Part shown: piece by piece, positions 5,804 to 64,000 of the stretch
Numbering within the stretch: position 1 is the first letter of the stretch
How the letters are laid out: every line of letters starts with the position of its first letter
Origin: Dehalococcoidia bacterium
GTDB lineage: Bacteria; Chloroflexota; Dehalococcoidia; Lucifugimonadales; UBA2962
Reading direction: 5' to 3'
NCBI GenBank assembly: GCA_965207145.1
Contig: OZ242262.1
Span: 2,411,947 to 2,475,946, forward strand
DNA: 64,000 bases
Notes under the pieces: model-generated
The model's input: only the letters and a program-made list of their open reading frames with translations
Databases searched by the model: none
Told to the model about the DNA's origin: nothing
Made by a program: the position numbers and the translations under genes

Positions 5804-5909
5804 TCCCTGGCCTTTCTCGATGGGATGCCGGGGGCTATCACTCTCTGATGTGGGTTTTGTGGGGTCAGAGATCGCCCGCCGCTTTGCTCAGTGCCGCACC
5901 GATCCTGCG

Positions 5910-7400: not shown

Positions 7401-7696
7401 CTCGTGGCGGATTCAGAGATTGGGTGGGATCCGGACCGCAGGGCGCTCCTCTATTCCCAAGATCTCCCCACCTCTACACGCGTATCCGTTGACCGACAGT
7501 ATGGCCCTCATCCGTCCTCATCTAGCAATTGCTTTGATGCTCCCGTATTCGCCGATCTGCGCGGCGAACCGTCGAGGCGGAGTTCTGGAGAGCAGGGAAC
7601 ATCTCACGGGCAACGCAGCGTTTCAGGCAGCGAGTGGTCTCGCTGCTGCTCGTTCTCCCAGCGGCGGCGGTTTCGGGACCGTGTGGTTGGACTCGG

Positions 7697-8080
7697 CTAC
7701 GTCTCTACTATCTGGATCAGGTTGCCGCAGGTGTCTTCGAAGCGGGCGATCGTGACGCCGGCCACCTCTGTGGGCTCCATCGCAAATGCCACGCCCAGCG
7801 ATTTCAGCCTCTCATGTTCGGCACGGATGTCCGAGACTCCGAAGGATGCCGCAGGGATGCTCTGCTCGAAGATCCCCTTCTGATATGCCTGCGATACCGG
7901 GTTGTCGTTTGGTTCAAGCAAAAGCTCGGTCCCATCCGGGTCATCGGGAGAAACAACGGTAAGCCACCGGTATTCTCCGACGGGGACATCCTGCTTCTTC
8001 ACGAAGCCGAGCGACTCCGTGTAGAACTCCTCCGCCCGGGCCTGGTCGCTAACGAAAACGCTGGTGTGTGTGATGCGCAT
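7697..8080 (-). CDS. VOC (glyoxalase/bleomycin-resistance/dioxygenase) family protein
   Basis: 127 aa. MRITHTSVFVSDQARAEEFYTESLGF... has the typical VOC beta-alpha-beta-beta-beta module. Confidence 0.85.
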   Translation of the reverse strand: MRITHTSVFVSDQARAEEFYTESLGFVKKQDVPVGEYRWLTVVSPDDPDGTELLLEPNDNPVSQAYQKGIFEQSIPAASFGVSDIRAEHERLKSLGVAFAMEPTEVAGVTIARFEDTCGNLIQIVET

Positions 8081-8393
8081 CTACGGCCTTCCGATCTTTC
8101 GTGCTGTCAAGTGAGCCATCTGTCCATAACAGTCCCGACGGGTTCATCGCCAAAGAAAATCACCGGTTACCCGCCAGCGCCGACCGCCGAATCTTAGCCA
8201 GCAGACAATCCACGCCGCTCTGTCCCCCGACTCTTGAGCCCAGAGGCCGACACAGCACATGTTACGGCACAACCGGACCGGGTCACTGTAAACTCTCCTC
8301 CAATGATCTCCATAAGCCCGGCCTGTGACTCGACGGAACCCTCGGCCCCTACGAGTCGCCCGACAGGATACTGCCGGATAGGACTCAGTATGG

Positions 8394-12271: not shown

Positions 12272-14740
12272 CTAGGCTTTCATCCGCCTGCCCTCCGGGT
12301 CGAAGAGTGGCTCACTCGCCACAGTAGCCCGGTGGCGATCGCCAAAGTAGAGGATCTCGACCTTCGTTCCGGGCTCCGCGTAGGCAAGCGGCAGATAGCC
12401 GTAGGCGATGCCGCGGTCTATGGAGTGTCCGTAGTTGGCACTGGTCACGTAGCCGAGCACCCGATCACCGTCCAGGATCGGCTCGCTGCCGACGACCACC
12501 ATGTTCCGATCGTCGAAGGTCATGCACCGCAACCTGCGCGTAAGGCCCTGCTCCCGCGATTCGCCGAGGGCCTCCCTGCCGATGAAGTCTCCCTTGCCCA
12601 TCTTCACCGCAAACCCTATGCCCGCCTCGAAGGGGTTGAACTCGGTGTGGATGTCGCTTCCCCACAGGCGGTACCCCTTCTCCAAGCGCAGCGAGTCGAA
12701 GGCGCCACCGCCGGCGGCGATGAGGCCAAGCGGCCTGCCCGCCTGCCAGAGCGTGTCCCAGAGTCGCAGCCCCTGCTCTGTGGGGGCGTAGATCTCCCAG
12801 CCCAGCTCGCCGACGTAGGAGATCCGCAGCGCCAGCGCCGGAACCTCTCCCACGCTTACGTCCTTTGCGGTCAGATATGGAAACGCACCGTTGCTCAGGT
12901 CATCCTCGCAGACGGCGCTGAGCAGGTCGCGGGCCCTGGGCCCCCAAAGGCCTATGCAGCAGAGATCGGTCGAGATGTCGGCCACGCTGACCGAGCGGTC
13001 GTTCGGTAGGTGCGACCGGATCCACTCAAGGTCGTGCAGCCCCATCGCTCCGCCGGTGACCACAAGGAATCGCTCCACGGCAAGCCGCGTGACCGTCAGG
13101 TCGCACTTTATTCCGCCGCTGGGAGTGAGCATCGACGTATACGTGATCGACCCGACTGGCCTGTCCATCTGGTTTGACGCCAGTCGCTGCAGGGCCGCGA
13201 GCGCGCCGGGGCCGGTCAACTCGAACTTGGCGAACGGGGTGAGGTCGAACAGGGCCACGCGCTCCCGGGTGGCCACGTGCTCTGCTGCGACCGTCGGCGA
13301 CCATTCCCGCGCGGCCCATCCCGTGCGAGGCCGTCCGGCGGCGGTGACGGAATCGAGTAGATCCCGGTTTGCTTCGTACCAGCGGGGACGCTCCCATCCC
13401 GCATCCTCAAAGAAAACGGCGCCGAGCTCTTTCTGCCTGCCGAAAAATGGCGTGAGCCTTATGTTTCGCGGCTCATCCGCCTGCTGGAGGGGGTGGATGA
13501 TGTCGTACACCTCGCGATATTGCCGGGAGGCGCGGGCCCGGACATACGGTCGGCCAAGGGCGTGGGGGTGGAAGCGTCGGATATCGCACTCGCGGAGATC
13601 GACGGCCGGCTCGCCGCCCACGATCCACTCGGCGACGGCCCTGCCGACGCCCCCGGCGTGCGTTATCCACACCGCCTGCGCCGACCAGAATCCCCGCACC
13701 AGGGGCGATTCGCCGAGCACGGGAAAGCCGTCGACGGTGAAAGAGAACAGGCCGTTGAACCTACGCGTCAACCCGGCACCCGAAACGCCCGGGATCACCT
13801 CCCGTGCCGCCGTCATCGCGGCCTTGAAATGACCCGGCGTAAAGGGCATCTCGGCCGGAGCGGTGCAGTCCTGTCCGTAGCGAGGGATCTCCTCGGACTC
13901 AACGAGCAGGGGTTCGTGGCGGTATGAGCCTATGCCGATCGCCTCGTTCTCCTGCCTAAAGTACATGGACCTGTCCTGGTGCCGAAGGAACGGCATGGAT
14001 ATCTCATCGGCCGCACCCGACAGCCCGGGCAAGGGCGTGGTAACAGCGTAGATGTGCTGCATCGGCGAAAGCGGAATCGGGACGCCGGCAAGAGCGCACA
14101 GCCTGGGCGCCCAGATGCCGACGGCGGATACCATCAGGTCCGTTTCAATATTTCCGCCCGTGGTGTGAACAGCGGTGACGCGCCCATTTGCGATTCCGAA
14201 GCCCGTAACCTCCACGTTGCCGTAGAATCTGGCGCCTTTGCGCTGGGCGCTGCGCGCCATCGCCTCGGCCGGCCTTATCGCCCTCGTGTGGACATCCGAG
14301 GGGACGTAGAGCGAACCCAGTATGCGCTCCGAAACCATGGGGAACAGGTCCCTCGTCTCGGCAGCGCCAAGGACATGGGCCTCGACACCCCAGCTCAGGC
14401 CGAGCCCGACCTTCCTCCTTAGGTCTGCCAGCCGCTCGGGCGTCCAGGCCACCTCCAGGCTGCCGACCGCCTTGGCACATGGAACACCGTCGAGCTCCAT
14501 TTGCGACCACAGGTCGACCGTGTAGCTCGCGAACCTCGTCATGGTCCTTGAGGGATTGATCTGGAATACGAGGCCCGGAGCGTGCGACGTGGAGCCGCCC
14601 GTCTCAAACAGCGCACCCTGGTCGACTACGACGATGTCCCGCCAGCCGAGCTCGGCCAGATGATACGCCACGCTGCACCCGGCGATCCCCGCGCCAATGA
14701 CGACAGCTTGGGCATGTCTCGGAAGCGTATCGACAGGCAT
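12272..14740 (-). CDS. FAD-dependent oxidoreductase with C-terminal GcvT domains (dimethylglycine/sarcosine dehydrogenase family)
   Basis: 822 aa. It has the N-terminal VVIGAGIAGCSVAYHLA FAD fold and a DAO domain, followed by folate-binding GcvT modules (ALFDLTPFAKFELTGPGA, SYVGELGWEIY, FDSLRLEKGY). Confidence 0.9.
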   Translation of the reverse strand: MPVDTLPRHAQAVVIGAGIAGCSVAYHLAELGWRDIVVVDQGALFETGGSTSHAPGLVFQINPSRTMTRFASYTVDLWSQMELDGVPCAKAVGSLEVAWTPERLADLRRKVGLGLSWGVEAHVLGAAETRDLFPMVSERILGSLYVPSDVHTRAIRPAEAMARSAQRKGARFYGNVEVTGFGIANGRVTAVHTTGGNIETDLMVSAVGIWAPRLCALAGVPIPLSPMQHIYAVTTPLPGLSGAADEISMPFLRHQDRSMYFRQENEAIGIGSYRHEPLLVESEEIPRYGQDCTAPAEMPFTPGHFKAAMTAAREVIPGVSGAGLTRRFNGLFSFTVDGFPVLGESPLVRGFWSAQAVWITHAGGVGRAVAEWIVGGEPAVDLRECDIRRFHPHALGRPYVRARASRQYREVYDIIHPLQQADEPRNIRLTPFFGRQKELGAVFFEDAGWERPRWYEANRDLLDSVTAAGRPRTGWAAREWSPTVAAEHVATRERVALFDLTPFAKFELTGPGALAALQRLASNQMDRPVGSITYTSMLTPSGGIKCDLTVTRLAVERFLVVTGGAMGLHDLEWIRSHLPNDRSVSVADISTDLCCIGLWGPRARDLLSAVCEDDLSNGAFPYLTAKDVSVGEVPALALRISYVGELGWEIYAPTEQGLRLWDTLWQAGRPLGLIAAGGGAFDSLRLEKGYRLWGSDIHTEFNPFEAGIGFAVKMGKGDFIGREALGESREQGLTRRLRCMTFDDRNMVVVGSEPILDGDRVLGYVTSANYGHSIDRGIAYGYLPLAYAEPGTKVEILYFGDRHRATVASEPLFDPEGRRMKA

Positions 14741-15126
14741 CTCGTATGCCCCCGCAGGCTCAGACCACGAAGTGCTACTGCATGATACGGGTTGTAGCGG
14801 ACTGTGCTCTAGGGGCCCTCCTGGTACTCAATGCCAGGATTCTCATCACTAGTTTGGTAGGCCGCTGGACTGGGAGATTTTCAGCCTGATTGTTTCAATG
14901 AGATTGGCAGGGCGAGTAGAGCGAGGCCCAGCCTGGAGACCCTCTAACCGGATCGCGGTATTCGGCTGCTCGGCGGCGGGTTCTGCCCGTAGCGCCTACG
15001 TACTTGATGTCACCTTGTCAGCGATGGGTTGCATCACCTCCCGGCTTGCGGCGTGGGATACACTGCGGCAGGCTGGGAAGGCAGGCCTCACGACCTTCAA
15101 AACGTCCAAATCCAGGAGGAAACTGA

Positions 15127-16290
15127 ATGGCGGACGTCCCCTTGTTCCCCGTAACGGTCGTTGGAAGCTGGCCCCGCTCCACCGATCTGGTTCGGGCCCT
15201 GCGTCGCAAAGAAACGGGCGAGATCTCCCTGGATGATTTCAACTCCGTGGCCGACGGCGAAGTCCTGGCCTGCATCCGGGCACAGGAAGCGGCAGGGGTG
15301 GACATCGTAAGCGACGGGGAGCAGCGCCGGGACAACTTCTACTCCTTTGCCGTGGACAAGCTGACGGGCATGCGGCTGATGAAGGTTTCGGAGCTACTGG
15401 ACTATTCCCGGGATCGGGCCCGGATGGAAGAGATGCTGCGGGCCTTGGACGTTCCGTCTTTTGCAATCAAGAGCCCCATCGTGGTTGACCGCATTGGGAA
15501 GCGTCAGGGACTGGCTCTCGATGAACTGGCCTTCATGCGGGAGCACACTGATCGGCAAATCAAGATTCCCCTACCCGGTCCCTATATGCTGACCCGCTCC
15601 AGCTGGTTCGAAGGTCTCTCCGACCGGGTTTATCCCGATCCCGAAGACTTGGCCGCCGACGTGGTGGCCATCCTCCGAGAAGAGATAATCTCTTTGCGCG
15701 ACGGGGGCTGCGACTTCGTTCAGTTGGATGAGCCCATCCTCAGCCAGGTGGTGTTCGGCGAGGAGAGCAGCGAGACCTTCATGTGCGCTGCCCTGCCCAA
15801 CCGCCGGGATCCGACTGACGAACTGGAATTCGCGGTTCGCCTGATGAACCACACCACGGAAGGAATCAGCGGAATCAGGACCGGGGTCCACGTCTGCCGC
15901 GGCAACTGGAGCCGGCGGGAAGACGTGCTGCTTACCGGCAACTACGGGCCTATGCTGCCCTACCTTACACAGATGAACATCGATCAGCTGGTGCTGGAGT
16001 GCGCCACGCCCCGGGCGGGCGAGATGGACGTTTTCAAGGAATACGATAACAAGCAGGAAATCGGCTTCGGAGTGGTGAATCCTCGGACCGACGACATCGA
16101 ACCTCAGGAGCAGATCGTCGCCCGGGTCAAGGAGCTCCTTCAGTACTTCGACCGGGACAAAATCTACCTCAACCCGGACTGCGGCTTCGGTACCTTCGCC
16201 GAAAGAAACGTCAACACCCACGAGATCGCCTCCAGGAAAATGCAGGTGATCGCCCGGGCCGCAGAACAGCTCAGGGCGGAGTATCGGTAA
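15127..16290 (+). CDS. MetE C-terminal-domain-like methyltransferase (cobalamin-independent methionine synthase family, COG0620)
   Basis: VVGSWPRS, DIVSDGEQRRDNFYSF, the Zn/thiol-binding signatures VHVCRGN and NPDCGF. A strong AGGAGG lies 7 nt upstream of the ATG. Confidence 0.85.
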   Translation: MADVPLFPVTVVGSWPRSTDLVRALRRKETGEISLDDFNSVADGEVLACIRAQEAAGVDIVSDGEQRRDNFYSFAVDKLTGMRLMKVSELLDYSRDRARMEEMLRALDVPSFAIKSPIVVDRIGKRQGLALDELAFMREHTDRQIKIPLPGPYMLTRSSWFEGLSDRVYPDPEDLAADVVAILREEIISLRDGGCDFVQLDEPILSQVVFGEESSETFMCAALPNRRDPTDELEFAVRLMNHTTEGISGIRTGVHVCRGNWSRREDVLLTGNYGPMLPYLTQMNIDQLVLECATPRAGEMDVFKEYDNKQEIGFGVVNPRTDDIEPQEQIVARVKELLQYFDRDKIYLNPDCGFGTFAERNVNTHEIASRKMQVIARAAEQLRAEYR

Positions 16291-16329
16291 CGGCAGAATT
16301 CGGGATTTCACCGGATAAGACCAAAGGAG

Positions 16330-16869
16330 TTGGAATTGGCAGAAGAAAGAGACCTTAACGGACTGCCTCGGGAGAAACTGGTCGAAGTCCTGGATTCCTT
16401 TAGGGACCCGGACGTCTTTGATGCGGTAACCGGACCCTGGAAGTCGCGAGTGGTCTGGCAGGACGGGATGCGGGCGCGCGCCTACATGCGTAACCATCAG
16501 GTTGACATGGACGAGCCAGGCGACCTGACCGCCACCGACGTCGCCGCCAGCGCCCACGAGCAGTTGCTGTCGGCCATCGGCAGCTGTATGACCGTGGGCT
16601 TCGTGGTCAACGCCACTAGGCAGGGAGTTCGCGTCCTTGACCTGGAGGTGGCCGTCGAAGGGTATTTCGACAACATCCGCAAGTGGGCCGGGGTCGCGGA
16701 CGAGGGAAACCCGGGTTACGGGAGGATTTCGGCCAAGTGCTTCGTGCGCGCCGACGCAGACGAGGAGACCCTGCGAGGAATCTGGCGTCTGGCGGTGGAG
16801 GGCTCCCCGGTCACGCAGTCGGTAGCCAACCCGACCTCGGTCGAGACCGACTTTGAAATGGTCGGTTAG
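16330..16869 (+). CDS. OsmC/Ohr family protein
   Basis: LLSAIGSCMTVGF and a second Cys (AKCFVRA) in an OsmC-like arrangement. The AAGGAG directly abuts the TTG at 16330, so the TTG at 16336 may be the real start. Confidence 0.8.
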   Translation: MELAEERDLNGLPREKLVEVLDSFRDPDVFDAVTGPWKSRVVWQDGMRARAYMRNHQVDMDEPGDLTATDVAASAHEQLLSAIGSCMTVGFVVNATRQGVRVLDLEVAVEGYFDNIRKWAGVADEGNPGYGRISAKCFVRADADEETLRGIWRLAVEGSPVTQSVANPTSVETDFEMVG

Positions 16870-17642
16870 TGGCCACATTCGTTTCGGCGGATTGGGTCTC
16901 TGATCACATCGGCCGGCCGGGATACCTGATAGTTGACCCCCGCTCGGCCATGCAATACCTAATGGGCCACCTGAGAGGGGCGGTCAGCGTTCCCTTAAGG
17001 GAGCTGCAGTGCCCGGACGGGCGTCTCGGCCAGCCGGAGCAGCTTGCCGCCGTCTTTGGCAAGGCAGGGCTGGGCGACGGCGTGTCCCCGGTGCTCTACG
17101 ACCATCGGGATGGCCGCAATGCAGCCATGGCAGCGTGGGTCCTGGAATACCTAGGCCGCGGCGACGTTCACGTCATGGACTTGCTCTACGACGCCTGGAA
17201 GGACCAGGGCCGGGAGGTTCTGTACAAGCCCGTCCCAACCGAGCCGAAACTCTTCTCGGTGTGCCTCAACCCGTCCGTGCGAGCCACCATGAACGAGGTG
17301 GCCGATTCCGGCGCTACGAGACTGTTGGATATCCGCTCCCCGGAGGAGTTTCTCGGACAAGCAGAAATGGACCATCGCCCAGGGCACATTCCCGGCGCCG
17401 TAAATCTTCCCCACTCGGAACTGGCCGGCGCCGATGGGAGGCTTCTCATTGAGCCAGGTCTGCTTCGCCAGCGGCTGGCAGCCGCGAGTATCACTCCTTG
17501 CGACCCTGTGGTGGCCTACTGCAGGAGCGGAGTCCGAGCCTCGCTGGCCTACCTCTCTATGCAGCAGGCCGGATACGACGTCCGCCTCTACGACGGCTCT
17601 TACGCGGAATGGATGGACAGCGGGAATAGCGTGGAAATCTAG
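16869..17642 (+). CDS. rhodanese-domain sulfurtransferase (tandem rhodanese, thiosulfate/3-mercaptopyruvate type)
   Basis: Two rhodanese domains, with the active-site loop CRSGVRAS in the C-terminal one. The GTG start overlaps the osmC-like stop (TAGTG). Confidence 0.88.
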   Translation: MATFVSADWVSDHIGRPGYLIVDPRSAMQYLMGHLRGAVSVPLRELQCPDGRLGQPEQLAAVFGKAGLGDGVSPVLYDHRDGRNAAMAAWVLEYLGRGDVHVMDLLYDAWKDQGREVLYKPVPTEPKLFSVCLNPSVRATMNEVADSGATRLLDIRSPEEFLGQAEMDHRPGHIPGAVNLPHSELAGADGRLLIEPGLLRQRLAAASITPCDPVVAYCRSGVRASLAYLSMQQAGYDVRLYDGSYAEWMDSGNSVEI

Positions 17643-18154
17643 CCCGTCTCAGCCAAACCCCTTCCTCCTCAGGAAGGCGGAGATCCTCCCGGGCCCGGTG
17701 CGGGGGCTGTCAGAGTTCACAGGTGAGACCTTCGGTCCAGGAGTCAAGAGGCCATTCAGCCGAACGGCACTTCGCCAAGTCCCTTCCATGTAGTCGAGTG
17801 CGTAGGACAGGACCCACATCTGGCGCCGTATCCCGGAGGCTTAGTCGGCCCAAGGGCTACGAATCGACTTGCCAAAGAGGGTTAGAGTTCGTCAGGCAAG
17901 AGTGCGTCGACCCGTGACCGGCGCGCCGCGAGAGCGACCCGCTCCCCCCAATTCTTATGCCACCTGCAGGCTGGATAGTCCGAGTCGTGCGGCCTAACGC
18001 CGAATGTGGCGCAGGATGATATCGGCCGACGCGTCAGCCTTCCCGTTCACATGGTCCGGAAATGGCGCTTGGCGCGAGTGTCCAGCGAACCCTATCTCCG
18101 GGGCGATGAGACGCCGCCCTTCCCCTACGCACTGACGGGGAGCCGTTCGTTCCC

Positions 18155-18811
18155 CTAGTTGCTCAACCGGAAGGGAGGATACCGGTCTGTCGTCATCAGG
18201 AAGGCGTAAGCGCCCACACGATAGCCCCACCGCATCACGCCCACGACGAAATCGAACAACCCCCGCGGGTATCGGCCCGTTACCAGGATCAACACCCAGG
18301 CCAGTATGGTGACCAGGATTGCCACGACCACAAGAACGGCGAGAGCAATGTAGTGAGGAATAGCCAGTAGCCATTTTACGATCGGCAGGAACCGGTTCAG
18401 ATCACTCTCGGCGTTTGGATATTCAATGTGCAGGTGCACGGACTGCTCTTCGTCCGTGGACGGATACTCGTCACGTAGCAGCAACACGTATGCCTCTATC
18501 CTCGCGGCAAACCGGCTGAGCTCCAGATTCCAGTTGAACCACCACTTCGGATACTTTTTGCGGAACAGGATCATCAGCAGGGGTCCGAAGACCAAGAACC
18601 CGCCAGCATAGATGGGCATGAGCGCCTCGTTAAGTTCCGGGTCTCCCATGTCGAAAAAGCCGCCTATGAACGCGGACAACACGAGGATTGGTATGGCCAG
18701 AATTATTCGCGGCAAGACCGACAGCCGGTTGCTCGATTCCTGGTAGTCGACAGAAAACTGCACCGGATAGTCGGATCTACCCGCTTCATTCTGGGAGTCG
18801 CTGTTCACCAT
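18155..18811 (-). CDS. DUF4389 domain-containing membrane protein
   Basis: YPVQFSVDY...RLSVLPRIILAIPILV and a second hydrophobic module LLAIPHYIALAVL...LVTGRYPRGLFDF...RYPPF. GGAGGG lies 4 nt upstream of the ATG. Confidence 0.75.
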   Translation of the reverse strand: MVNSDSQNEAGRSDYPVQFSVDYQESSNRLSVLPRIILAIPILVLSAFIGGFFDMGDPELNEALMPIYAGGFLVFGPLLMILFRKKYPKWWFNWNLELSRFAARIEAYVLLLRDEYPSTDEEQSVHLHIEYPNAESDLNRFLPIVKWLLAIPHYIALAVLVVVAILVTILAWVLILVTGRYPRGLFDFVVGVMRWGYRVGAYAFLMTTDRYPPFRLSN

Positions 18812-19056
18812 AAAGCCCTCCGTGTAAACCTGCTACGCGGCCCCTAGGCCAGCGGCGCGCAGCATAGCAGAATGAGGCAGTACCTTCCTCCAATTCCACT
18901 CCTGCGAATGCGGCCATACGGCTCTCTATCGGAAGATAGGGCGGCCACTAGCCGGAAACCTAGTTGAAAGTGAAATAGGTGACGATGTCTGGGGGCGGCG
19001 CAAGGCCGTGGGGAGGAGGAAGGTGTCTGAGCCGGAGGTCTAGCGGCACGTCAAGT

Positions 19057-22050: not shown

Positions 22051-23253
22051 CTAAATGCACTCTTGCGCTTCGTCATTTGCCCCTTCCTCTCTGTTCCATT
22101 CGTTTGACAGCCACACGGCCATGTCCCTGATGATGGCGACTATTGGGGGGCCAATGATGATTCCCCATATTCCGAAGTACTTGCCGGCGACCACGATGAT
22201 CACTGTCAGCCAAACGGGATGAATGCGAAGGGCGTTGCTCTGCACCCGCCCCTCGATGAACATGTTTGAAAACAGTTGTACGCCCACGTAGAACAAGGCC
22301 ACCCACAAAAGCTTCTCAGGGGCGACGGCAAGGGTGACAAGCAGGCCGAACAGAGCGCCTATCCATGGTCCTACGATGGGCACTAGCTGGGTGAGGCCCG
22401 CCGCAAGGCCAAGTACGAAGGCATAGGGCACTCCCATCAGCTTCAGGGACACGCCGATTATGAGACCGAGCGTAAGCTGGCCCCGAATGTAGCTGCCCAG
22501 CGTTCCGCCGGCGATGCCGAACAATTCCCTGACATAAGGCTTCAGGTCGGTTGGGAACGGAGCGAAGAGACCGTCTCTGATGCGCTCAGAGTCCTTCAGA
22601 AGTCCGTAAACCATCACGGGCGTAGCGGCCAGACCAAGGATGATGGAGAACGAACTGGCCAGAGTGCTAAACGTGCCCTTTACAAAATCCACAGCGACGT
22701 TGCCGATGAGGCCGCCGGCGCTGTCCAGAAACTCCTGTATCCGGTCCTTGACGTTCTCCGGAATCTGCTCCGTGTATCTGCCTATGAGGTCTTCCAGGCT
22801 TGCGCGGACCCTTGCAAAAAGATCGGGCAATTCCTGGGCGAACCGCTGGCTGTCTTCGACAATCGCCGGAATGAGCAGGGCCAGCGTTCCGGCTATGGCC
22901 GCTATGGCAATGGCGTAGATGATGCCGATGGCCAGCTTTCGGCTCAAAGCCGGGCGTCGCTCTCTCCAGGGCATAGCACGCTCGATGAGGCGAACGGGGC
23001 CGAGCAAGATGAAGGCGAGTACGACGCTCAGGCCAAGGGTGAGCAGGATCGTGCCCAGGAGATAGAGGATCAGCAGCGAGATTACGGCCGCCGCAACGGC
23101 GGCTACCAGCAAGCTTCGCCTGCGGTCTAGTGGCCAGCGCATTAGGCGAACCAAATCCCGCTTAGGTGATCCACTATCGTTAAGTTCAGAATCCGCCTGC
23201 CTTGTTTCCCCCCGACCTGAAGAGCAAACGACCTTGAGCGTGATCAAGCCCAA
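22051..23253 (-). CDS. AI-2E family transporter (PerM/UPF0118)
   Basis: About 8 TM segments. The characteristic C-terminal GLAAGLTQLVPIVGPWIGALFGLLVTLA is present. The start may be the ATG at 23142 (MRWPLDRRRSLLV). Confidence 0.85.
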   Translation of the reverse strand: MGLITLKVVCSSGRGETRQADSELNDSGSPKRDLVRLMRWPLDRRRSLLVAAVAAAVISLLILYLLGTILLTLGLSVVLAFILLGPVRLIERAMPWRERRPALSRKLAIGIIYAIAIAAIAGTLALLIPAIVEDSQRFAQELPDLFARVRASLEDLIGRYTEQIPENVKDRIQEFLDSAGGLIGNVAVDFVKGTFSTLASSFSIILGLAATPVMVYGLLKDSERIRDGLFAPFPTDLKPYVRELFGIAGGTLGSYIRGQLTLGLIIGVSLKLMGVPYAFVLGLAAGLTQLVPIVGPWIGALFGLLVTLAVAPEKLLWVALFYVGVQLFSNMFIEGRVQSNALRIHPVWLTVIIVVAGKYFGIWGIIIGPPIVAIIRDMAVWLSNEWNREEGANDEAQECI

Positions 23254-23339: not shown

Positions 23340-23969
23340 GGGGGAAATCAGACCTGATCGTTGATGTCACGCGCGATGTCTTCGCGGCACCTCGGCGTAG
23401 TCAACAATTCCAGCGCGTTGGCTACTGTCTCGTTGAACTGAATGTGCGTATCGAGCAAGTCGAGCATGATCCACCCTGGCGCTGAGTCCGGCGACCGGCA
23501 AGTTGACAGCATCGACCTTCGTCAAGAGGACCACAACATTCGTCTCAAGGCTGACGACCCTTGTCGCGAACTGTTAGGCATCCCCCTCGAGGTGGACCTC
23601 AACATCCGCTCAGATCCCCGAATCTCCTGCGGAAAAAGGCGGGTCGGACGGATGTCTTCAGATGGGACGTCACAATCACAAAGCTGATTACTCTCATAAC
23701 TGAGGATGGCGATTCTTCAATTGCCGGTGCCTGTCGCGCCCTGCAAACCAAGCCACGCGCGTCCGCTAACAGTCATGTCTCCTAGGTACTATCACACGGC
23801 AACATTTAACTACCGTGTAATTTAGGGCGAATCATTGTGTCAGTTTTGTTTCAATAGTCGTCTCCAGTTAGAATCGAGTCCTGCTGGCACCCCCAGGTAC
23901 TGAGAAGGAGGTGGGGAGATCGAGGTAACCGGCGGACCAGACTCGGAAGCCCTAGCGCAAGGGGACCGA

Positions 23970-26315
23970 TTGTCACGGCTATGCGAGGCCAGCCTGCGCA
24001 TCAACGAGAGTCTGGACGTGGACACAGTGCTGCAGGGGGTGCTGGACAGCGCCCGGTCACTGACTGGGGCCAGCTACGGGGCCTTCGTCCTGCTGGACGA
24101 CTCTGGGCGGATAGAGGACTTCCTTTCGTCAGGGCTTACCGCCGAGGAGGCCCAGGGGATGTGGGACCTGGCGGACGGGATGCGGTTCTTCGAGCTGCTC
24201 ACCATGACCGAGGGACCCCTCCGGCTGGCCGACATGCTGGGCCACATCAGGTGCCAGGGCCTTCCCGAGCTGCAGCCTCCCGTGGAGGTCGGCCCCTCGC
24301 TACCCCTCCTAGCAGCGCCGGTCCTTCATATGGGAAGGCGCGTCGGCCACATCTTCGTGGCAGAGAGAGATACGGGCGGGGAGTTTAGCCGGGAGGACGA
24401 GGAAACGCTGGTGATGTTCGCCTCCCAGGCAGCGCTGGTCATAGCCAACGCCCGGCGGCACCGGGACGAGCGGCGGGCCAGGGCCGACCTGGAGACGCTG
24501 ATGGACACCGCTCCGGTGGGCGTGGTGGTCTTCGACGTCGCCAGCGGGACGGTGAAATCGTTGAATAGGGAGGCGAGACGCATAGTTGGGGACCTGCTCA
24601 CTCCCGATGGGTCTGTGGAGCGTATGCTGAGCGTCCTCACCTTCAGGCGGGCCGACGGGCGGACGGTGTCATTGGAGGAACTCCCCTTGACCGAGGCGCT
24701 GAGCTCCGGAGAGACGGTGCGGGCTGAGGAGATCTCCGTCGAGCTGCCCGACGGGAGGTCGGTGACCACCCTGATCAACGCCACGGCCATCCGGTCGGAG
24801 GAGGGCGAAGTGGAGTCGGTCGTCGTCACCATGCAAGACCTGACACGCGTGGCGCAACTGGCGCGGCTGAGATCCGAGTTCCTAGGCATGGTCAGCCACG
24901 AGCTCCGCCTGCCGCTGACCTCCATCCGGGGCTCGGCCACAACCCTGCTGGACGAAGGCCCGGCCCTGGGTGCGGCCGAGATGCGCCAGTTCTTCCGGAT
25001 CATCGTCGACCAAGCCGACCAGATGCGGGGCATGATCAGCGACCTGCTGGACGTGGCGCGCATCGAGACTGGCACGTTGTCGATATCCCCGGAACCGTTG
25101 GATGTGGCCGTCCTGGTGGACGACGCCCGGAATAGCTTCGAGCGCGGCGGCGGCCGACACAGGTTAGACGTCACCTTCGAGCCCCAGCTGCCCCAGGCGA
25201 TGGCGGACCGGCAGCGCATAGTACAGGCATTGGGCAACCTACTGTCCAACGCGGCCAGGCATTCGGCTGAAGAATCGCCCATCGGGGTGAGTGCCCGGAG
25301 GCAGGGCGCGCACGTGGCGATCTCCGTGTCCGATAGAGGACAGGGAATCCCCGCCGAGGCGTTGCCCAACCTCTTTCGCAAGTTCACCCTCATCGACGGC
25401 TCCGAGAGAAGGCGCGACCCTGCGAGGTCGGGGCTTGGCCTGTCCATCTGCAAGGGGATCGTGGAGGCTCACGGCGGCCGCATCCGGGCCGAAAGCGAGG
25501 GGCCAGGCCAGGGCGCCTGCTTCACCTTCACCATTCCGGCAACGGAGCCAGCGTCGACCGAAGTCGCCGCATCCATCTCCCGCCGCGCGGCGCGACAACT
25601 GACGCGAGTCCTTGCAGTGGACGACGACCCCGAGGCTCTGCGGCAAATCCGCGAGGCTCTGGCGCGGACGGGCTACCACCCGGTGGTCACGGGCGACCCG
25701 GCGGAGGTACCCCGCCTGATGCAGGAGGAGCGTCCCCACCTGGTGCTGATGGACCTGATGCTGCCCGGTTGCGACGGCATCGGCCTGATGCGGGAAGTCC
25801 TGGCATCAACCGACGTGCCAGTGATCTTCGTCTCCGCCTACGGGCAGGAAGAGCTGGTGATCAAGGCGTTGGACATGGGGGCCGTCGACTATGTGGTCAA
25901 GCCCTTCTCCCCCTCTGAGCTGTCGGCGAGGATAAGGGCGGCGATGCGCCAACGGGCCGGGTTGGGACGGGCGGCTCAGCCGAGGCCCTATCTGCTGGGA
26001 GATCTGAGCATTGACTACGCCGAACGCCGGGTTGCTCTCGCTGGACGTAAGGTAGACGTCACCGCAACCGAGTACGCAGTGCTCTACGAACTCTCGGCCC
26101 ATGCGGGAATGGTGCTGACACACGACCAGCTGCTGCTGCGGGTCTGGGGCATGAGCCACTCCGGAGATACGGGGCTGGTCCGCACCATAGTGACCCGGTT
26201 GCGAGGCAAACTGGGCGACAAAGCGGGCCATCCCCGCTACATCTTCACCGAGCCCCGCGTCGGCTATCGCATGCCTCGGGGGGAAGTGGTGGCGAATGAG
26301 GGCGCATCTCTCTGA
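23970..26315 (+). CDS. single-polypeptide two-component system: GAF-PAS-HisKA-HATPase sensor kinase fused to a complete OmpR-type response regulator (REC + winged helix)
   Basis: 781 aa with no TM segments. It contains a GAF-like N-terminus, PAS (APVGVVVFDVASGTVKSLN), the H-box MVSHELRLPLTSI, the N-box NLLSNAARH, G-boxes DRGQGIP and GLGLSICKGIVEAHGG, REC (VLAVDDD, LVLMDLMLPGCDG, VKPF), and wHTH (TATEYAVLYELS...RVGYRM). The start is either the TTG at 23970 or an upstream in-frame ATC at 23919 behind AAGGAGGTG. Confidence 0.88.
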   Translation: MSRLCEASLRINESLDVDTVLQGVLDSARSLTGASYGAFVLLDDSGRIEDFLSSGLTAEEAQGMWDLADGMRFFELLTMTEGPLRLADMLGHIRCQGLPELQPPVEVGPSLPLLAAPVLHMGRRVGHIFVAERDTGGEFSREDEETLVMFASQAALVIANARRHRDERRARADLETLMDTAPVGVVVFDVASGTVKSLNREARRIVGDLLTPDGSVERMLSVLTFRRADGRTVSLEELPLTEALSSGETVRAEEISVELPDGRSVTTLINATAIRSEEGEVESVVVTMQDLTRVAQLARLRSEFLGMVSHELRLPLTSIRGSATTLLDEGPALGAAEMRQFFRIIVDQADQMRGMISDLLDVARIETGTLSISPEPLDVAVLVDDARNSFERGGGRHRLDVTFEPQLPQAMADRQRIVQALGNLLSNAARHSAEESPIGVSARRQGAHVAISVSDRGQGIPAEALPNLFRKFTLIDGSERRRDPARSGLGLSICKGIVEAHGGRIRAESEGPGQGACFTFTIPATEPASTEVAASISRRAARQLTRVLAVDDDPEALRQIREALARTGYHPVVTGDPAEVPRLMQEERPHLVLMDLMLPGCDGIGLMREVLASTDVPVIFVSAYGQEELVIKALDMGAVDYVVKPFSPSELSARIRAAMRQRAGLGRAAQPRPYLLGDLSIDYAERRVALAGRKVDVTATEYAVLYELSAHAGMVLTHDQLLLRVWGMSHSGDTGLVRTIVTRLRGKLGDKAGHPRYIFTEPRVGYRMPRGEVVANEGASL

Positions 26316-57759: not shown

Positions 57760-58524
57760 ATGGACCAGGCCCCGCCGTCGACCCGCGCCCGCCCTAGCGT
57801 CCTCGGAGACGAAGACACACGGCCATCCATCCTGGCAATCGACGACGACCCGGAGGCGGCTGAGCGCCTCCGCAGCGCGCTCACCCAGGCCGGCTACCGC
57901 CCGCTGGTAACCGGGGACCCGGGTGATGTCTTTCGGCTTCTCAAGGAGCACAGGCCGCGACTGGTCTTCCTGGAGCTGGTTCTTCCCGGCGGCGACGGTA
58001 TCGAGATGATGCAGGACATCATGGCCAACGCCGCCGTTCCGGTGATCATCCTTTCGGCCCATGGACACGATGAGGTCATCGCAAGGGCGCTTGACATGGG
58101 GGCGGCGGACTACGTGGCAAAGCCCTTTTCTCCCGCCGAGCTCTCGGCAAGAATCAGGGCGGCCCTCAGGCGCGGGTCCGCCGGCAGCCTGGGGGACACC
58201 TCAGGAACCTACGTTTTCGGCGATTTGGCCATCGACTACGGCAGGCGGACGGTGACCGTCGCAGGAGGCTCCGTTAGGCTCACCTCAACCGAGTACCGGA
58301 TGCTCACCGAGCTATCTCTGAGCGCCGGCCGGGTGATGACCCACGGTCAGCTGCTGCGACGAGTCTGGAGCCTGAGCAAGCCCGCCGGCTCGGGGCCGGT
58401 GCGCACAATCGTAAAGAGGCTGCGCCGCAAGCTCGGCGACGATGCGTCGGATCCCAAGCTCCTGTTCACCGTGCCCGGGGTAGGCTACCGGATGGCCCCC
58501 CCAGACGCCGGAGCGGGCATCTAG
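57760..58524 (+). CDS. OmpR-family response regulator, orphan, with Glu in place of the phospho-acceptor Asp
   Basis: REC (ILAIDDDPE, VIILSAHG, YVAKPF) + wHTH (TSTEYRMLTELS...VPGVGYRM). The acceptor position reads LVFLELVLPGGDG (GAG at 57973-57975), where the hybrid paralogues have LMDLML and LLDLML. Confidence 0.88.
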   Translation: MDQAPPSTRARPSVLGDEDTRPSILAIDDDPEAAERLRSALTQAGYRPLVTGDPGDVFRLLKEHRPRLVFLELVLPGGDGIEMMQDIMANAAVPVIILSAHGHDEVIARALDMGAADYVAKPFSPAELSARIRAALRRGSAGSLGDTSGTYVFGDLAIDYGRRTVTVAGGSVRLTSTEYRMLTELSLSAGRVMTHGQLLRRVWSLSKPAGSGPVRTIVKRLRRKLGDDASDPKLLFTVPGVGYRMAPPDAGAGI

Positions 58525-60194: not shown

Positions 60195-60953
60195 TCACTC
60201 GAAAGTAGACGCGTCCTGCCCCACCCACCTGACGATAATGGCATTCAGGGTGCCATCATCCTTCATCGACGCCAGGGCCTCATCGAGCCTTCCCTTCAGT
60301 TCACTGCCCATGCGGACGCCAATGCCGAGGCCGCGGTCCAGCAGCACGGACGGCCCCACGATCTCCAGCTCACCCTCGTGTTCGGCGAGCTTCTTTACGC
60401 CATACCCGTGGTCCACCAGGATGACATCCACCTTGCCGCTGAGCACCGCTTCGACCGGATCCGTCGAGTCGTCAAAGGCCACATACGCCCGGCCCTGTTC
60501 CGTCAGGTAGTCCGAATATATGTTGTTCGCCCCCGATCCGATCGTGCCCTGGACGGCCCCGTCGCCCGCTCCAGCTCTTGCCACGTACACCGAGGGGGTT
60601 GGCGGGTAGTACGCTTCTGTGAAGTCGATCATGTCCTCCCGCTTGGCGGTGATGCTCATGCCGGCGAGAATCGCGTCGAATTTTTCCGCCACCAGGTCGG
60701 GAATCATGGCCTCCCAATCGTTCAGTACCCACTCACACTCAAGATCGGCGCGCCGGCACAGCTCGTCTCCCAGTTCGCGCTCCAGGCCATCAATCTCGCC
60801 TTCATCGTTGACAAAGACGAATGGATGGTAATTGTCCACGGTGGCTATCACCACCGTGTCTGATCCTCGACATGCGGCCAGTAACGGCAGGAGTGCCGCC
60901 GCCAGGGTTACCGCAACAATCGCCCAAAAGAACCTGCATTTAGAAGTCATCAA
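60195..60953 (-). CDS. amino-acid ABC transporter substrate-binding lipoprotein (SBP family 3)
   Basis: Lipobox LLAAC. YHPFVFVNDEGEIDGLERELGDELC..., WEAMIPDLVAEKFDAILAGMSIT.KR...DFT..YY. Confidence 0.85.
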   Translation of the reverse strand: MMTSKCRFFWAIVAVTLAAALLPLLAACRGSDTVVIATVDNYHPFVFVNDEGEIDGLERELGDELCRRADLECEWVLNDWEAMIPDLVAEKFDAILAGMSITAKREDMIDFTEAYYPPTPSVYVARAGAGDGAVQGTIGSGANNIYSDYLTEQGRAYVAFDDSTDPVEAVLSGKVDVILVDHGYGVKKLAEHEGELEIVGPSVLLDRGLGIGVRMGSELKGRLDEALASMKDDGTLNAIIVRWVGQDASTFE

Positions 60954-61238
60954 TGTCGTTACCTCTAGTATTCCACTGGAGTCTCAGCCTGGCCGACCGG
61001 CAGGAGAATGTGGCGGAACTCAGATGGACGTTACGCCTGCCAACGTTGCGCAGCTCCAGGGATGCCACTGAGGGACCGAGGCTCGGCCCCTAACGGGTAA
61101 AACGCCCATTTGACTGGCGACGCCGGTTCGACCCGTTCGTACGTATGGCAAGGCCAGTGCGTGCACTTGATCCTCGGGACAGGCAGCGAATCTGCCTCGG
61201 GCCGGTTGCCGGTCGCCATTGGAATCGGCAGGCCACGT

Positions 61239-62324
61239 TCAGCGCATTGGAGGAGCGTAGATCAACCCACCGTCCAGGTAAGATGCGTTGAGGGAGCCTG
61301 CTCGCGCAAGGCCCACTCGCTCAAGCGTCCGTTCGTAGACTTCTCCGTAGTTGCCCACCTGCCGGATCACGTCCTGCATAAACGTACCCGGTATCTTGCC
61401 GTGGCCTATCCCGAGGTTGCTCGGGGCGCCGCCATCGAAACCGACTCCCAGCAGCCGCGCAACCGTGTTGTTCGGCGGATCCGCCGCCATCAGCCTGACG
61501 TTCTCACGCGTAACGCCCTGCTCTTCGGCGATGATCATGCCGTTTACGACCCAGCGGACCAAGTCCTCCCACACCGAGTCGTTGTCCCTCACGCTGGGTC
61601 CGATCGGCTCCTTGGACAGAGTTTCCGGCAAAACGACGGCGTCGATGGCATCGTCCGTCTTCAAAGCGAACTGGTGGCTGCCCAGCTGGGACTTGTCCGA
61701 GGACCAAGCGTCGCACTGATCGCTTATGAAGGCCGCGCGAAGCTCGGGATTGGCCTGGAAGGTCAACTCCTCGTACGTAATCCCCTTCTCGGAGAAGTAA
61801 TCGGAGACGGCTCCCTGGGTGCTGGTGCCGTCAACGATGCAGATGGTGGCACCACCGAGCTGGCTGGCGCTGGTTATGCCAGAGTCCGCCCTTACCATGA
61901 TGGCGGCACCGTCATAGAAGGTCGTGGTGACGAAGGCCATATTCAGGTCGGCGTCGCGACTGGCCGTCCAGCTGGTCGTGCGTATGAGCGCGTCGATCTC
62001 GCTTGCGGCGAGCAGTTCGAAGCGGTTGGCCGCCGTTGCGGCCTTGAACTCGACCTTGGTCGAATCCCCAAAGACGGCCGCAGCGAGGGCATAACAGTAC
62101 TCCACGTCGTTGCCCTCCGCGGTTCCGTCCGGCTTCAGCACCCCGAACCCGGGCGTGTCGGCCTTGATGCCGCATACCAGGTAACCTCGATCGAGAACCT
62201 GGTCCAGCGTGCTCGCTCCGCGAGCGTCCGCATCATCTCCGCAGGCAACCATCGTCAGAAGCGCGGCGCAAAGCAACGCTGCGGCAACCAGAATCTCAAT
62301 CCGCCAGCCGCTGAGCAGATTCAT
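61239..62324 (-). CDS. amino-acid ABC transporter substrate-binding lipoprotein (AapJ/general L-amino-acid type)
   Basis: Lipobox TMVAC. RGYLVCGIKADTPGFG..., FELLAASEIDALIRTTSWTASRD, GATICIVDGTS. Confidence 0.85.
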   Translation of the reverse strand: MNLLSGWRIEILVAAALLCAALLTMVACGDDADARGASTLDQVLDRGYLVCGIKADTPGFGVLKPDGTAEGNDVEYCYALAAAVFGDSTKVEFKAATAANRFELLAASEIDALIRTTSWTASRDADLNMAFVTTTFYDGAAIMVRADSGITSASQLGGATICIVDGTSTQGAVSDYFSEKGITYEELTFQANPELRAAFISDQCDAWSSDKSQLGSHQFALKTDDAIDAVVLPETLSKEPIGPSVRDNDSVWEDLVRWVVNGMIIAEEQGVTRENVRLMAADPPNNTVARLLGVGFDGGAPSNLGIGHGKIPGTFMQDVIRQVGNYGEVYERTLERVGLARAGSLNASYLDGGLIYAPPMR

Positions 62325-62376: not shown

Positions 62377-64000
62377 CTAAGCTCCCGGCCGGACTCGGGT
62401 TGCCCCGGATTGCTGCAGATGTCCTTCGATCTTCGCCATGCGGTACCCCACGCGCGGTTCGGTCAAGATGTAGGAAGGGTCGTTCGCATCGTCGCCAAGC
62501 TTACGGCGAAGCCTCTTGACCACGTCCCGAAGCAGCCACGGTTCTCCAGTTCTGTGTGGTCCCCAGACCAGCTGCAGCAGGTGGTCATGGGTCATGACGC
62601 GGCCGAGGTTCACCGAGAGCTCGTACAGCACGGCGTACTCGGTCGCAGTCAACTGCACGGGATGTCCGGAGACGGTCACACTCCGCTCCGCGTAGTCAAT
62701 ATGCAGGTCTCCCGCCGAAAGGGGGTGTGAAGGTTCGACCATATGAGGCGCTGCACGCCTGCGGAGAGCCGCCCTGATCCTGGCAGCCAGCTCAGTCGGT
62801 GAGAAGGGCTTTACGACGTAGTCGGCAGCGCCCATGTCGAAGGCCCTGGCAACGACCTCCTCCTGGCCGTACACGGATACGAAGATGACCGGCACATCGG
62901 CCGACCTCAGGATGTCCTTCATGAGCTCGATGCCGTCGGTACCCGGGAGCATCAAGTCAAGTAGTACAAGGTGCGGCCTTTCCTCGTCCATGAGCCGGGG
63001 CACCTCCTCAGGATCCCCGGTCACGATCGGCGCGTAGCCTTCCTTCGACAGGGCGCTGCGGACGTACCTGAGCGCCTGCGGATCGTCATCCACAGCGAGC
63101 ACGCGCACCCGGTCCCTCACCGAGCTTCGCTGCCGTGCGGCAGCTGCGGGGGACTTCGCCATTTCGACGACGCCTTCCCCTTCGACCACCGGGATCGTGA
63201 AGGTGAATCGGGCCCCCAGTCCGGGTCCTTCGCTCTGCGCCCAGATTCGGCCTCCGTGCGCCTCCACTATCCCCTTGCAGATCGCAAGTCCGAGGCCCGA
63301 TCCGGCAGTGCCGCTTCTGCGTTCCACCTCATCTAGCCTCGAGAACTTTCTGAACAGGTGGGGCAGATGATCGGACGAAAGGCCTCTTCCCTCGTCGGTC
63401 ACCTAGACGGAAACATGGACGTCGCCGCGCTCTGCGGCGATCCGGATGGGTGATCCTTCAGGCGAGTACCTCGCAGCATTGGAAAGAAGGTTGGTCAGCA
63501 CCTGGACGACGCGCCGCCGGTCGGCCATAACCGGGGGAAGCTCGGGAGGAAGGTTTACCTGCAGGTTCTCACGGCCCCCCGCGCCAAGGAAACGGCGCCT
63601 GGCCTCGTCCACCATGTCGGCAAGACCGGCGGGGCCTGGATTGACCGATAACGCGCCGGTCTCTATCCGCGCCACGTCCAGGAGATCTCCGATCAGGTGC
63701 CTCATCTGGTCTGACTGGTCGCGGATTATCCGGAAGAACTGGGTCATCTCCGCGGGGTCCAGCTCGGGTGCGGCCTCAAGGAGGGTGTCGGCCGAACCCT
63801 TAATGGACGATAGCGGAGTCCTCAGTTCGTGGCTGACCATGCCCAGGAACTCGGCACGCATACGCTCAAGCTCCTCCATCGGCGTCATGTCCTGCATGGT
63901 CATGACGAACGACTCGAGCTCGCCTTCCTCGGAGTGGATTGGCGTGGCGTTGATGAGCGCGCTGACGCTCCGGCCGTCGGGCACGCGCATGACGATCTCC
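62377..64000 (-). pseudogene. second GAF?-PAS-HisKA-HATPase-REC-wHTH fusion gene, interrupted by an in-frame TAG (5' end outside the window)
   Basis: ORFs 63403..63990 and 62377..63402 are contiguous in one frame and separated only by the TAG at 63405..63403: ...ERGDVHVSV*VTDEGRGLSSDHLPHLFRKF... This aligns with ...GAHVAISVSDRGQGIPAEALPNLFRKF... of the 23970 paralogue, where the stop falls on a Ser. The frame continues open past 64000. Confidence 0.6.

Follow-up and report, generated by a model that had tools for sequence, protein, structure and literature searches.

In the hybrid two-component systems (HTCS) of Bacteroides, such as BT1754 and BT4663, a sensor, a HisKA kinase, a receiver and a DNA-binding output are joined in one polypeptide. 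HTCS are membrane-bound proteins with AraC-type outputs (PMC11253607) and carry periplasmic Y_Y_Y/beta-propeller or PBP-like glycan sensors. They occur as many paralogues per genome and regulate polysaccharide utilisation loci, and their genes tend to adjoin the loci that they are thought to control. Kinase-receiver specificity in HTCS appears relaxed, and insulation is attributed to tethering, that is, to a high local concentration of the partner (PMC11253607). A second described group, the 'hybrid transmembrane transcription regulators', comes from a survey of transmembrane DNA-binding proteins with response regulator, HisKA and/or HATPase_c domains, with a high fraction noted in Chloroflexota (PMC10269533).

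Here we analysed a 64,000-nucleotide stretch of the genome of a Dehalococcoidia bacterium (contig OZ242262.1, positions 2,411,947 to 2,475,946; hereafter the window). It contains a gene for a fused sensor kinase and OmpR-type regulator (copy 1) and a paralogue that is cut by the window end (copy 2). Like HTCS, the family to which copy 1 belongs combines sensor, kinase, receiver and DNA-binding output in one chain, is present as many paralogues per genome, shows signs of relaxed specificity with insulation by tethering, and tends to lie beside genes that it may control. It differs from HTCS in being soluble, with GAF and PAS sensor domains, in its OmpR/PhoB winged helix, in its occurrence in Chloroflexota and in that about half of its genes adjoin genes for giant secreted repeat proteins. 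We propose that copy 1 is likely to be a soluble, self-contained and tether-insulated kinase-regulator, HTCS-like with an OmpR-type output, and a member of a large paralogous family.

Domain architecture and conservation of the fused protein

The product of copy 1 matches exactly a database protein (P0001, on a 961-kb ENA contig). The initial annotation had read its open reading frame (ORF) of 781 codons as GAF, PAS, HisKA, HATPase, receiver (REC) and OmpR-type winged helix-turn-helix (wHTH) domains, without transmembrane (TM) segments. A Pfam scan bore this out: all six domains, HisKA and Trans_reg_C included, scored above their gathering cut-offs (Table 1), and no TM segment was found, the highest 19-residue Kyte-Doolittle mean being 1.35. 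Copy 1 lacks two traits that define HTCS, the TM or periplasmic sensor and the AraC-type (HTH_18) output, for which the Pfam scan gave no match, and the contrast that had been drawn with the Bacteroides proteins is a valid one (PMC11253607). An AlphaFold2 model built with 80 homologues folds all six domains confidently. In this model long unbroken helices run from GAF to PAS (residues 141-180) and from PAS into the dimerization and histidine phosphotransfer (DHp) domain (292-328), and disordered tethers separate the catalytic and ATP-binding (CA) domain from the receiver (527-543; pLDDT ~24) and the receiver from the wHTH (664-670). The model is a monomer and has no bearing on whether phosphotransfer occurs in cis or in trans.

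Comparison with described proteins divides copy 1 into a kinase and a regulator. Among NCBIfam models, residues ~290-525 align with PhoR-, WalK- and EnvZ-type kinases and residues 547-768 align end to end with OmpR-family regulators (MtrA, 1-218 of 219; PhoB; KdpE); no equivalog cut-off was reached, the best score being 167 bits against 300 for MtrA. The closest solved structure for the kinase core (DHp and CA, residues 286-524) is HK853 of Thermotoga (2c2a/3dge), a class I HisKA kinase, with E = 3e-40 and all boxes shared. Residues 545-768 gave full-length alignments with solved regulators (E = 1e-29 to 4e-36), the closest being MtrA (2gwr), PrrA (1ys6), KdpE (4kny) and PhoP (3r0j/5ed4). Copy 1 differs from HK853-class kinases in being soluble, in having its substrate in cis and in lacking the T/N phosphatase residue at His+4. 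With OmpR/PhoB regulators it shares the REC active-site residues and the winged helix, and the candidate operators of the family would be 7-bp direct repeats with a 4-bp spacer; its regulator is not a free protein and forms the C-terminal third of a kinase.

The phospho-acceptor His310 (24897-24899) lies in an SHELR motif that is invariant in 208 of 208 homologues. The HATPase box residues (N427; D455, G457 and G459; F469; G488-L491) are invariant or nearly so in the family, and the receiver residues D551, D552, D595 (the acceptor), S622 and K644 are present in copy 1 and conserved. His310, the N, G1, F and G2 boxes and these receiver residues are at least 98% conserved among ~208 full-length homologues, and this near invariance of the phosphorelay residues argues for a working His-to-Asp pathway. 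Copy 1 very probably works as a self-contained soluble kinase-regulator.

Fusions of a histidine kinase with a receiver are usually of the phosphorelay kind, and copy 1 has partial NCBIfam similarity to the hybrid kinases TorS, BarA and LvrA, as would be expected if its receiver passed the phosphate on to a histidine phosphotransfer (HPt) domain and a terminal regulator, the wHTH being secondary. We regard such a phosphorelay as extremely improbable. Unlike in phosphorelay hybrid kinases, the receiver of copy 1 is followed by a complete wHTH, with which it forms the unit that aligns end to end with MtrA, PhoB and KdpE. Pfam found no HPt domain in the copy 1 protein (the other genes of the genome were not searched for HPt). 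Moreover, the wHTH is kept throughout the family, with upstream repeats that are specific to the helix type.

The fusion had been called uncommon, and this view has to be abandoned. When one genome per GTDB species was scanned, the presence of at least 565 copies was confirmed. The fused core alone (residues 290-781) was then used as a phmmer query against 1.84 billion 50%-identity cluster representatives: among the best 150 matches, the last of which still had E = 1e-91, 117 align unbroken across the whole HisKA-to-wHTH core. A TM-like sensor segment is present in only 4 of these 117 representatives; the other 113 are without TM, whereas the hybrid transmembrane transcription regulators (PMC10269533) are TM proteins only. 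All nine sampled distant members keep the core, and their sensors consist of multiple PAS domains, GAF, MEDS, or HAMP with PAS. The 120 listed full-length homologues (628-850 aa, with 119 reaching 781 aa or more; identities of 61-100%) all show the fused architecture uninterrupted and have the Pfam set including Trans_reg_C, the sole exception being P0028 (628 aa), for which no GAF is recorded. Together with an intact 810-aa orthologue of copy 2 (P0132, locus L082), they uphold the claim that the fusion is not an assembly artefact.

Among the matches listed, nearly all copies are found in metagenome-assembled genomes (MAGs) that bear the label Dehalococcoidia, Caldilineaceae or Chloroflexota, a few being labelled Latescibacterota or Actinomycetota, and up to 4-5 copies share one chromosome; the family of copy 1 occurs mainly in Dehalococcoidia and Caldilineaceae genomes. 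We found no earlier description in the literature of a cytoplasmic GAF-PAS-kinase-REC-OmpR family, and one member that we looked up, P0218, is annotated as 'ATP-binding protein' only. The soluble proteins with OmpR-type output form a large, multi-copy and undescribed family. Latescibacterota and Caldilineaceae copies fall in clades of their own, which speaks against cross-phylum transfer in general; the 'Acidimicrobiia' copy L024, the sole one that is 95% identical to Dehalococcoidia copies, could be due to a recent transfer or to a mislabelled MAG.

Two observations concern individual copies. L022 and L023 are 100% identical family genes at opposite ends of the 'complete' chromosome record OZ240213.1, and the pair is probably an end overlap left in a circular assembly and not two copies. 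The paralogue P0081 (L084, L085) lies in a mobile-element context, with genes for a serine recombinase, a DDE transposase, AlpA and a tyrosine integrase; its region is also found on a separate low-coverage contig (7x against 45x), where the transposase gene is split in two.

Proposed phosphotransfer, insulation and signal sensing

The positions that determine kinase-receiver specificity are near-fixed even between paralogues of one genome. In the first DHp helix (alpha-1), all family members have G at H+11 (100%), 98% have S at H+12 and 96% have T at H+15, and REC alpha-1 follows the pattern PxALRxxRDAL. The tether between CA and REC is the most variable internal segment (entropy 2.37), its length ranging from 20 to 35 residues among paralogues. 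The recognition helix of the wHTH (approximately residues 734-748 in copy 1, VRTIVTRLRGKL) also differs among paralogues, reading TIVTR, DVVKR, TAAKQ, NIVRR or TIVSK. A fixed interface with a variable tether is the pattern expected of insulation by tethering and not by interface divergence; because the DHp alpha-1 and REC alpha-1 residues are near-invariant among paralogues, we infer that insulation in this family is based on the tether.

Near identity of both helices within one genome would also suit kinases that act mainly in trans, with paralogues cross-talking and phosphorylating each other and/or an orphan regulator, in which case the fusion would define no private pathway. Kinase dimers could in principle be heterodimers, and an orphan OmpR-type regulator (Table 1) that has no adjacent kinase lies ~4 kb from copy 2 and is kept in the sister genome (L082, 16736-17524). 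We consider predominant trans phosphorylation unlikely. REC alpha-1 of the orphan (DDDPEAAERLRSAL) differs from that of the fused proteins exactly at the classical specificity positions (PEAAERLRSAL against PQALRYVRDAL), and the orphan is disfavoured as their cognate partner because of this difference; it may have arisen when a family member split long ago. HTCS combine relaxed specificity with insulation via local concentration (PMC11253607), and the paralogue-specific operators and helices argue for separate outputs.

We propose the following course of events for the tether-insulated protein. A cytoplasmic signal would be read by the GAF domain, which by homology is DevS-like and in most members probably free of haem, and by the PAS domain, and would run along the continuous predicted helices into a dimeric HisKA kinase. 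The kinase would autophosphorylate at His310 and pass the phosphate to Asp595 of the receiver, 20-35 flexible residues away, paralogues being kept apart by the high local concentration that tethering provides, in parallel with Bacteroides HTCS. The phosphorylated receiver would release or dimerise the winged helix, which would then bind 7-bp direct repeats with a 4-bp spacer in the upstream region of its own gene, as suggested by period-11 repeats that differ by recognition-helix type. The output would be autoregulation and control of the divergent neighbour, which in the family at large typically encodes a giant secreted protein of the fn3/cadherin/LRR kind; copy 1 would have its own promoter as a candidate target, and possibly also the gene for the AI-2E transporter.

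In kinases with an H-E/D-x-x-T/N motif, T or N at His+4 is needed for phosphatase activity (PMC3510030). This position is Leu314 in copy 1, which does not carry the bifunctional motif (family counts: T 127, A 31, L 18, M 18). Because the T/N is missing, we predict that copy 1 is biased towards kinase activity and has little activity as a phosphatase.

Along its whole length, the N-terminal GAF of copy 1 shows homology to the haem-binding GAF-A of DevS (DosS) and DosT (E = 2e-14 over residues 16-165). DevS is a HisKA_3 kinase that works with a separate NarL-type regulator, DosR. The homology, together with a Tyr at the position of DevS Tyr171 in 125 of 208 family members, would fit a haem-based gas or redox sensor and hence a regulator responsive to O2, NO or CO, a reading that we find very hard to credit. 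His149 of DosS/DevS is the proximal haem ligand, and the H149A substitution abolishes haem binding (PMC4082495). The equivalent residue is Gln102 in copy 1, and the column across 208 family members contains R 70, Q 59, G 21 and H 11; equivalents of DevS Glu87 and His89 are absent, and the Tyr171 position is occupied by Phe129 in copy 1. The GAF core itself varies across family members. We rejected haem sensing through a DevS-like GAF for copy 1 and most of the family: since the His149 equivalent is missing, haem ligation by copy 1 is unlikely, its fold being DevS-like all the same.

Table 1. Features of the window, tandem repeats found upstream of family genes, and members of the L013 group. 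Positions are those of the window unless stated otherwise.
Feature	Residues	Position	Strand	Remarks
Copy 1, fused sensor kinase and OmpR-type regulator	1-781	23970..26315	+	781-aa ORF as annotated, TTG start
GAF	15-158	24012..24443	+	Pfam
PAS	173-290	24486..24839	+	Pfam
HisKA/DHp	301-368	24870..25073	+	PF00512, 64 bits against cut-off 26.9
HATPase_c	413-525	25206..25544	+	PF02518, 96 bits; N, G1, F and G2 boxes present
CA-REC tether	526-546	25545..25607	+	entropy, length variation, predicted disorder
Receiver (Response_reg)	547-656	25608..25937	+	PF00072, 91 bits
OmpR/PhoB-type winged helix (Trans_reg_C)	692-768	26043..26273	+	PF00486, 64.8 bits against cut-off 26.2
Shine-Dalgarno-like sequence and ATC at the canonical start-codon site of the family		23904..23921	+	GAAGGAGGTG (23904-13), then ATC (23919-21)
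Candidate promoter/operator of copy 1		23835..23874	+	TTGTGTC (23835-41)-AGTT-TTGTTTC (23846-52), TAGAAT (23869-74)
AI-2E family transporter		22051..23253	-	divergent upstream neighbour of copy 1
Copy 2, paralogue cut by window end		62377..64000	-	HisKA, HATPase, REC and wHTH in one frame, TAG-interrupted
In-frame TAG of copy 2		63403..63405	-	within HATPase_c, just before the G1 box
Two SBP_bac_3 solute-binding protein genes		60195..62324	-	directly downstream of copy 2, 53-bp gap
Orphan OmpR-type response regulator		57760..58524	+	55% identical to copy 1 residues 547-768
Tandem repeat, helix RTAAKQ				CTGTGAG
Tandem repeats, helix RNIV				CCAATTC, CAATTTC, CCCCAAT
Tandem repeats, helix RT(I/V)VK				ATGTCAT, TGTGGCA
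Tandem repeat, helix RSAIN				ATGACAT
Tandem repeat, Latescibacterota copy				AGTAACT
L013 group		~5260-8340 in locus coordinates		L013, L048, L024, L021, L015, L022, L025, L027, L026, L032
L013 group (list continued)		~5260-8340 in locus coordinates		L037, L056, L028, L069, L039, L033, L040, L052, L038, L079

The start of copy 1 and the state of copy 2

The TTG start annotated for copy 1 is doubtful because the canonical start site of the family, 17 codons upstream, holds ATC after a strong Shine-Dalgarno (SD) sequence. The canonical ATG, 25 codons before an LRINE motif, serves as start in 157 of 208 homologues, and the relatives P0004 and P0007 have their Met start at the position equivalent to the ATC. 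ATC stands in place of this ATG in copy 1 and three orthologues (L002, L001 and L004; 77-97% identical). Across these 4 orthologues the string GGAGGTG..ATCGA is unchanged, the strong SD being kept 5-6 nt upstream (alignment A1). The peptide upstream of the annotated TTG is conserved, whereas alternative starts downstream are not. The ATC may be a conserved non-canonical AUC initiation codon, and the protein would then have 798 aa.

Base composition sets the family genes apart from their surroundings. The region of copy 1 (24001-26000) has a G+C content of 0.67 against 0.57-0.60 in its flanks, the same excess is found at other family loci (L019, 0.66 against 0.56; L013, 0.685 against 0.59), and overall the family gene exceeds its flanks by 5-10 percentage points (window, L019, L013, L002).

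Copy 2 is 62% identical to copy 1 over residues 254-772, and the initial annotation had taken it as a second example of the same fusion. The fusion is indeed kept there; the gene, encoded on the minus strand, continues beyond the window end, and its in-frame TAG had been missed, which weakens the argument from a second copy. As assembled, copy 2 is not intact. At the site of the TAG the orthologue has TCG (Ser), and Ser is kept in 197 of 209 family members. The GTG directly after the TAG opens a 341-aa ORF (62377-63402), for whose product an exact look-up gave no match. The nearest relative, the orthologue P0132 of a sister genome, is 95% identical, and its region is syntenic, with two SBP_bac_3 genes, a hypothetical gene, the orphan regulator and a permease gene. 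Alignment of 1,624 nt of copy 2 with this orthologue showed 0 indels, 88 synonymous and 33 non-synonymous differences, the TAG being the sole disabling change.

Recoding or read-through of the TAG was rejected: 26 of 44 genes in the window end in TAG, more than in any other ordinary stop, and the window has no suppressor tRNA, its sole tRNA being tRNA-Gly. Copy 2 is either an orthologously conserved paralogue with a very recent nonsense mutation or the victim of a base-call error. The chances are about even that it is a recent pseudogene or a fission in progress, which would leave a kinase fragment and turn the 341-aa ORF into a free regulator. The stop falls on a conserved Ser codon, is a normal stop here and meets no suppressor tRNA in the window; other members look interrupted too (three in-frame stops in L052, over-long matches at L040 and L069), and an orphan regulator of the same lineage lies nearby. 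Against decay stand the single substitution, the lack of indels and the purifying pattern (88:33) relative to the intact orthologue; an intact gene with a consensus base error would account for the same assembly data.

The tblastn matches at L052 (6001-8976), L040 (6001-8697) and L069 (6001-9405) far exceed the 2.3-kb gene. Some family members appear interrupted or decaying, which fits turnover of the family as well as the TAG of copy 2. It is possible that the SBP_bac_3 pair is co-transcribed with copy 2 or belongs to its targets.

Candidate operators and giant secreted neighbours

Upstream of copy 1 we noticed a tandem repeat (Table 1) with a period of 11 bp and 6/7 identity, whose second unit lies at -35, 17 nt before TAGAAT; we take this to be a Pho-box-like layout. 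The block is conserved in the orthologues L002, L001 and L004 (alignment A3). A generic sigma-70 promoter scan, a repeat finder and an Rfam scan around copy 1 gave nothing useful. Of 78 loci, 28 have exact 7-mer tandems with period 11 in their upstream region; when one locus per helix type was kept, 10 of 45 had them. As controls, periods 8-10 and 12-15 gave 0-4 of 45, the downstream region gave 3 of 45, and shuffled sequence gave 2.6%. The repeat sequence differs with the type of recognition helix (Table 1), and all repeats lie 168-229 bp upstream. We regard these period-11 tandems as candidate operators.

About 20 loci, the L013 group, are 86-96% identical at the nucleotide level over a discrete unit of ~3.1 kb, which comprises the gene and 300-740 bp upstream; the homology stops sharply at the 3' end of the gene. 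The flanks are otherwise unrelated and belong to genomes of different species, and copies are also alike within genomes. The upstream part of the unit (alignment A2) contains the 5' end of the divergent giant gene, which encodes a signal peptide, a poly-G tract whose length varies, a promoter close to consensus (TTGTGA-17-TATAAT) and the tandem CTGTGAG-N4-CTGTGAG, which lies ~190-230 bp before the start in 20 of 20 loci matching a looser TGTGA-N5/6-TGTGA. On the other strand the box reads TCACAGC-TACC-TCACAGG and agrees at 13/14 positions with the PhoP box of M. tuberculosis, TCACAGC-N4-TCACAGC, which has a strict 4-bp spacer (PMC4832192); the recognition-helix residues are not those of PhoP. 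CTGTGAG-N4-CTGTGAG is absent from the whole window and is therefore not the operator of copy 1. The confines of the L013 unit suggest that it was transferred recently, underwent gene conversion or was recombined as a cassette onto various giant genes.

One copy of the unit is in a MAG labelled Acidimicrobiia. Downstream of the L013 copy (L083, 8603-14391) are genes for SIR2_2, a 923-aa protein without Pfam match and an HsdM methylase, which looks like a defence-island neighbourhood. Homopolymer tracts of G (or C), 8-33 nt long, lie in the divergent intergenic region at 29 of 77 loci (for example L013 at ~5540-5560, L026, L035, L001 and L004), and the length of the G tract varies from 8 to 26 among otherwise near-identical loci (alignment A2). 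No such tract was found upstream of copy 1 or of the orthologue of copy 2. The tracts could reflect slipped-strand phase variation or homopolymer assembly noise.

No gene family is a fixed neighbour: when crude ORFs from 80 loci were clustered, no cluster was present in more than 10 loci. We used pre-computed gene calls and, separately, a criterion of size plus signal peptide, counting as large any neighbour of at least 500 aa (most exceed 1,700 aa and are cut by the flank end). In 36 of 72 loci the divergent gene upstream codes for a large protein whose N-terminus resembles a signal peptide; the same kind of gene stands downstream in only 4 of 72 (Fisher p = 1.5e-9, for loci that are not independent). 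Domains of the giants include fn3, cadherin or cadherin-like, LRR, Calx-beta, GLUG, SWM and Ig-like repeats, and one giant has a subtilase. Such 'eukaryote-like' repeat proteins are regarded as a hallmark of sponge symbionts (PMC6306507), and to judge from bin names such as SB0661, COS1 and RHO3 these MAGs are probably sponge-associated. Of the copy 1 orthologues, L001 and L004 adjoin giants, whereas copy 1 of the window and L002 have the AI-2E transporter gene instead. The adhesin link is a property of the family and not of this window, because the window copies adjoin the AI-2E transporter and solute-binding-protein genes.

Farther upstream of copy 1 (12272-14740, minus strand, and 15000-19000) are a gene for a dimethylglycine/sarcosine-oxidase-like fusion (DAO, FAO_M, GCV_T) and Meth_synt_2, OsmC and rhodanese genes. 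This gene set suggests a metabolism of methylated amines and sulfur, as is typical of marine Dehalococcoidia (SAR202-like).

Tentatively, and with the odds somewhat against it, we suggest that the fused proteins are dedicated regulators of the giant secreted 'eukaryote-like' adhesin genes (fn3, cadherin, LRR) of probably sponge-associated Chloroflexota, acting through their own 7-4-7 operators, with the ~3.1-kb cassette as a mobile form. A cue in the cytoplasm would be sensed by each paralogue, which would then occupy a direct-repeat operator of its own within the divergent promoter region that the two genes share. For at least one sub-family, regulator, operator and the 5' end of the signal-peptide gene would make up a cassette that has been recombined onto different giant genes and moves between genomes, and the variable poly-G tract may add a phase-variable layer.

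Several points weigh against what we propose for copy 1 and for the family. Autophosphorylation, His-to-Asp transfer and DNA binding are all inferred from sequence; the invariant interface would be just as compatible with free cross-talk between paralogues or with the orphan regulator; and it is not certain where the copy 1 protein truly begins. Once the loci are de-replicated, the period-11 signal is moderate (10 of 45), most loci being without an exact tandem, and the repeat of copy 1, with just 6/7 identity and an overlap with the -35 element, could be plain promoter sequence. The family loci are phylogenetically related, and the statistics of neighbours and repeats overstate their independence. 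Finally, neither copy in the window adjoins a giant secreted gene, and the targets suggested for the family may not hold for these two genes.

Work on two-component systems in a single polypeptide has been confined almost entirely to Bacteroides, whose proteins of this kind sit in the membrane and have AraC outputs. A large soluble family with OmpR output is a second, independent natural experiment on tethering in place of interface specificity, and it bears on how a dimeric kinase controls two winged helices on head-to-tail repeats. The proteins are soluble, and biochemistry and structural work should therefore be much easier than for HTCS. For annotation, no NCBIfam model reaches its cut-off and the family bears no label beyond 'ATP-binding protein'. 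What the family level adds to the single gene is the expansion of paralogues, the invariant interface beside divergent sensors and helices, the candidate operators and the pairing with giant proteins. The last two provide testable targets in uncultured symbionts, in which regulation is essentially uncharted. If the link to giant adhesins is true, it would be the first proposed regulatory system for the eukaryote-like proteins of symbionts, and a natural case of co-diversification of operator and recognition helix in a tether-insulated kinase family.

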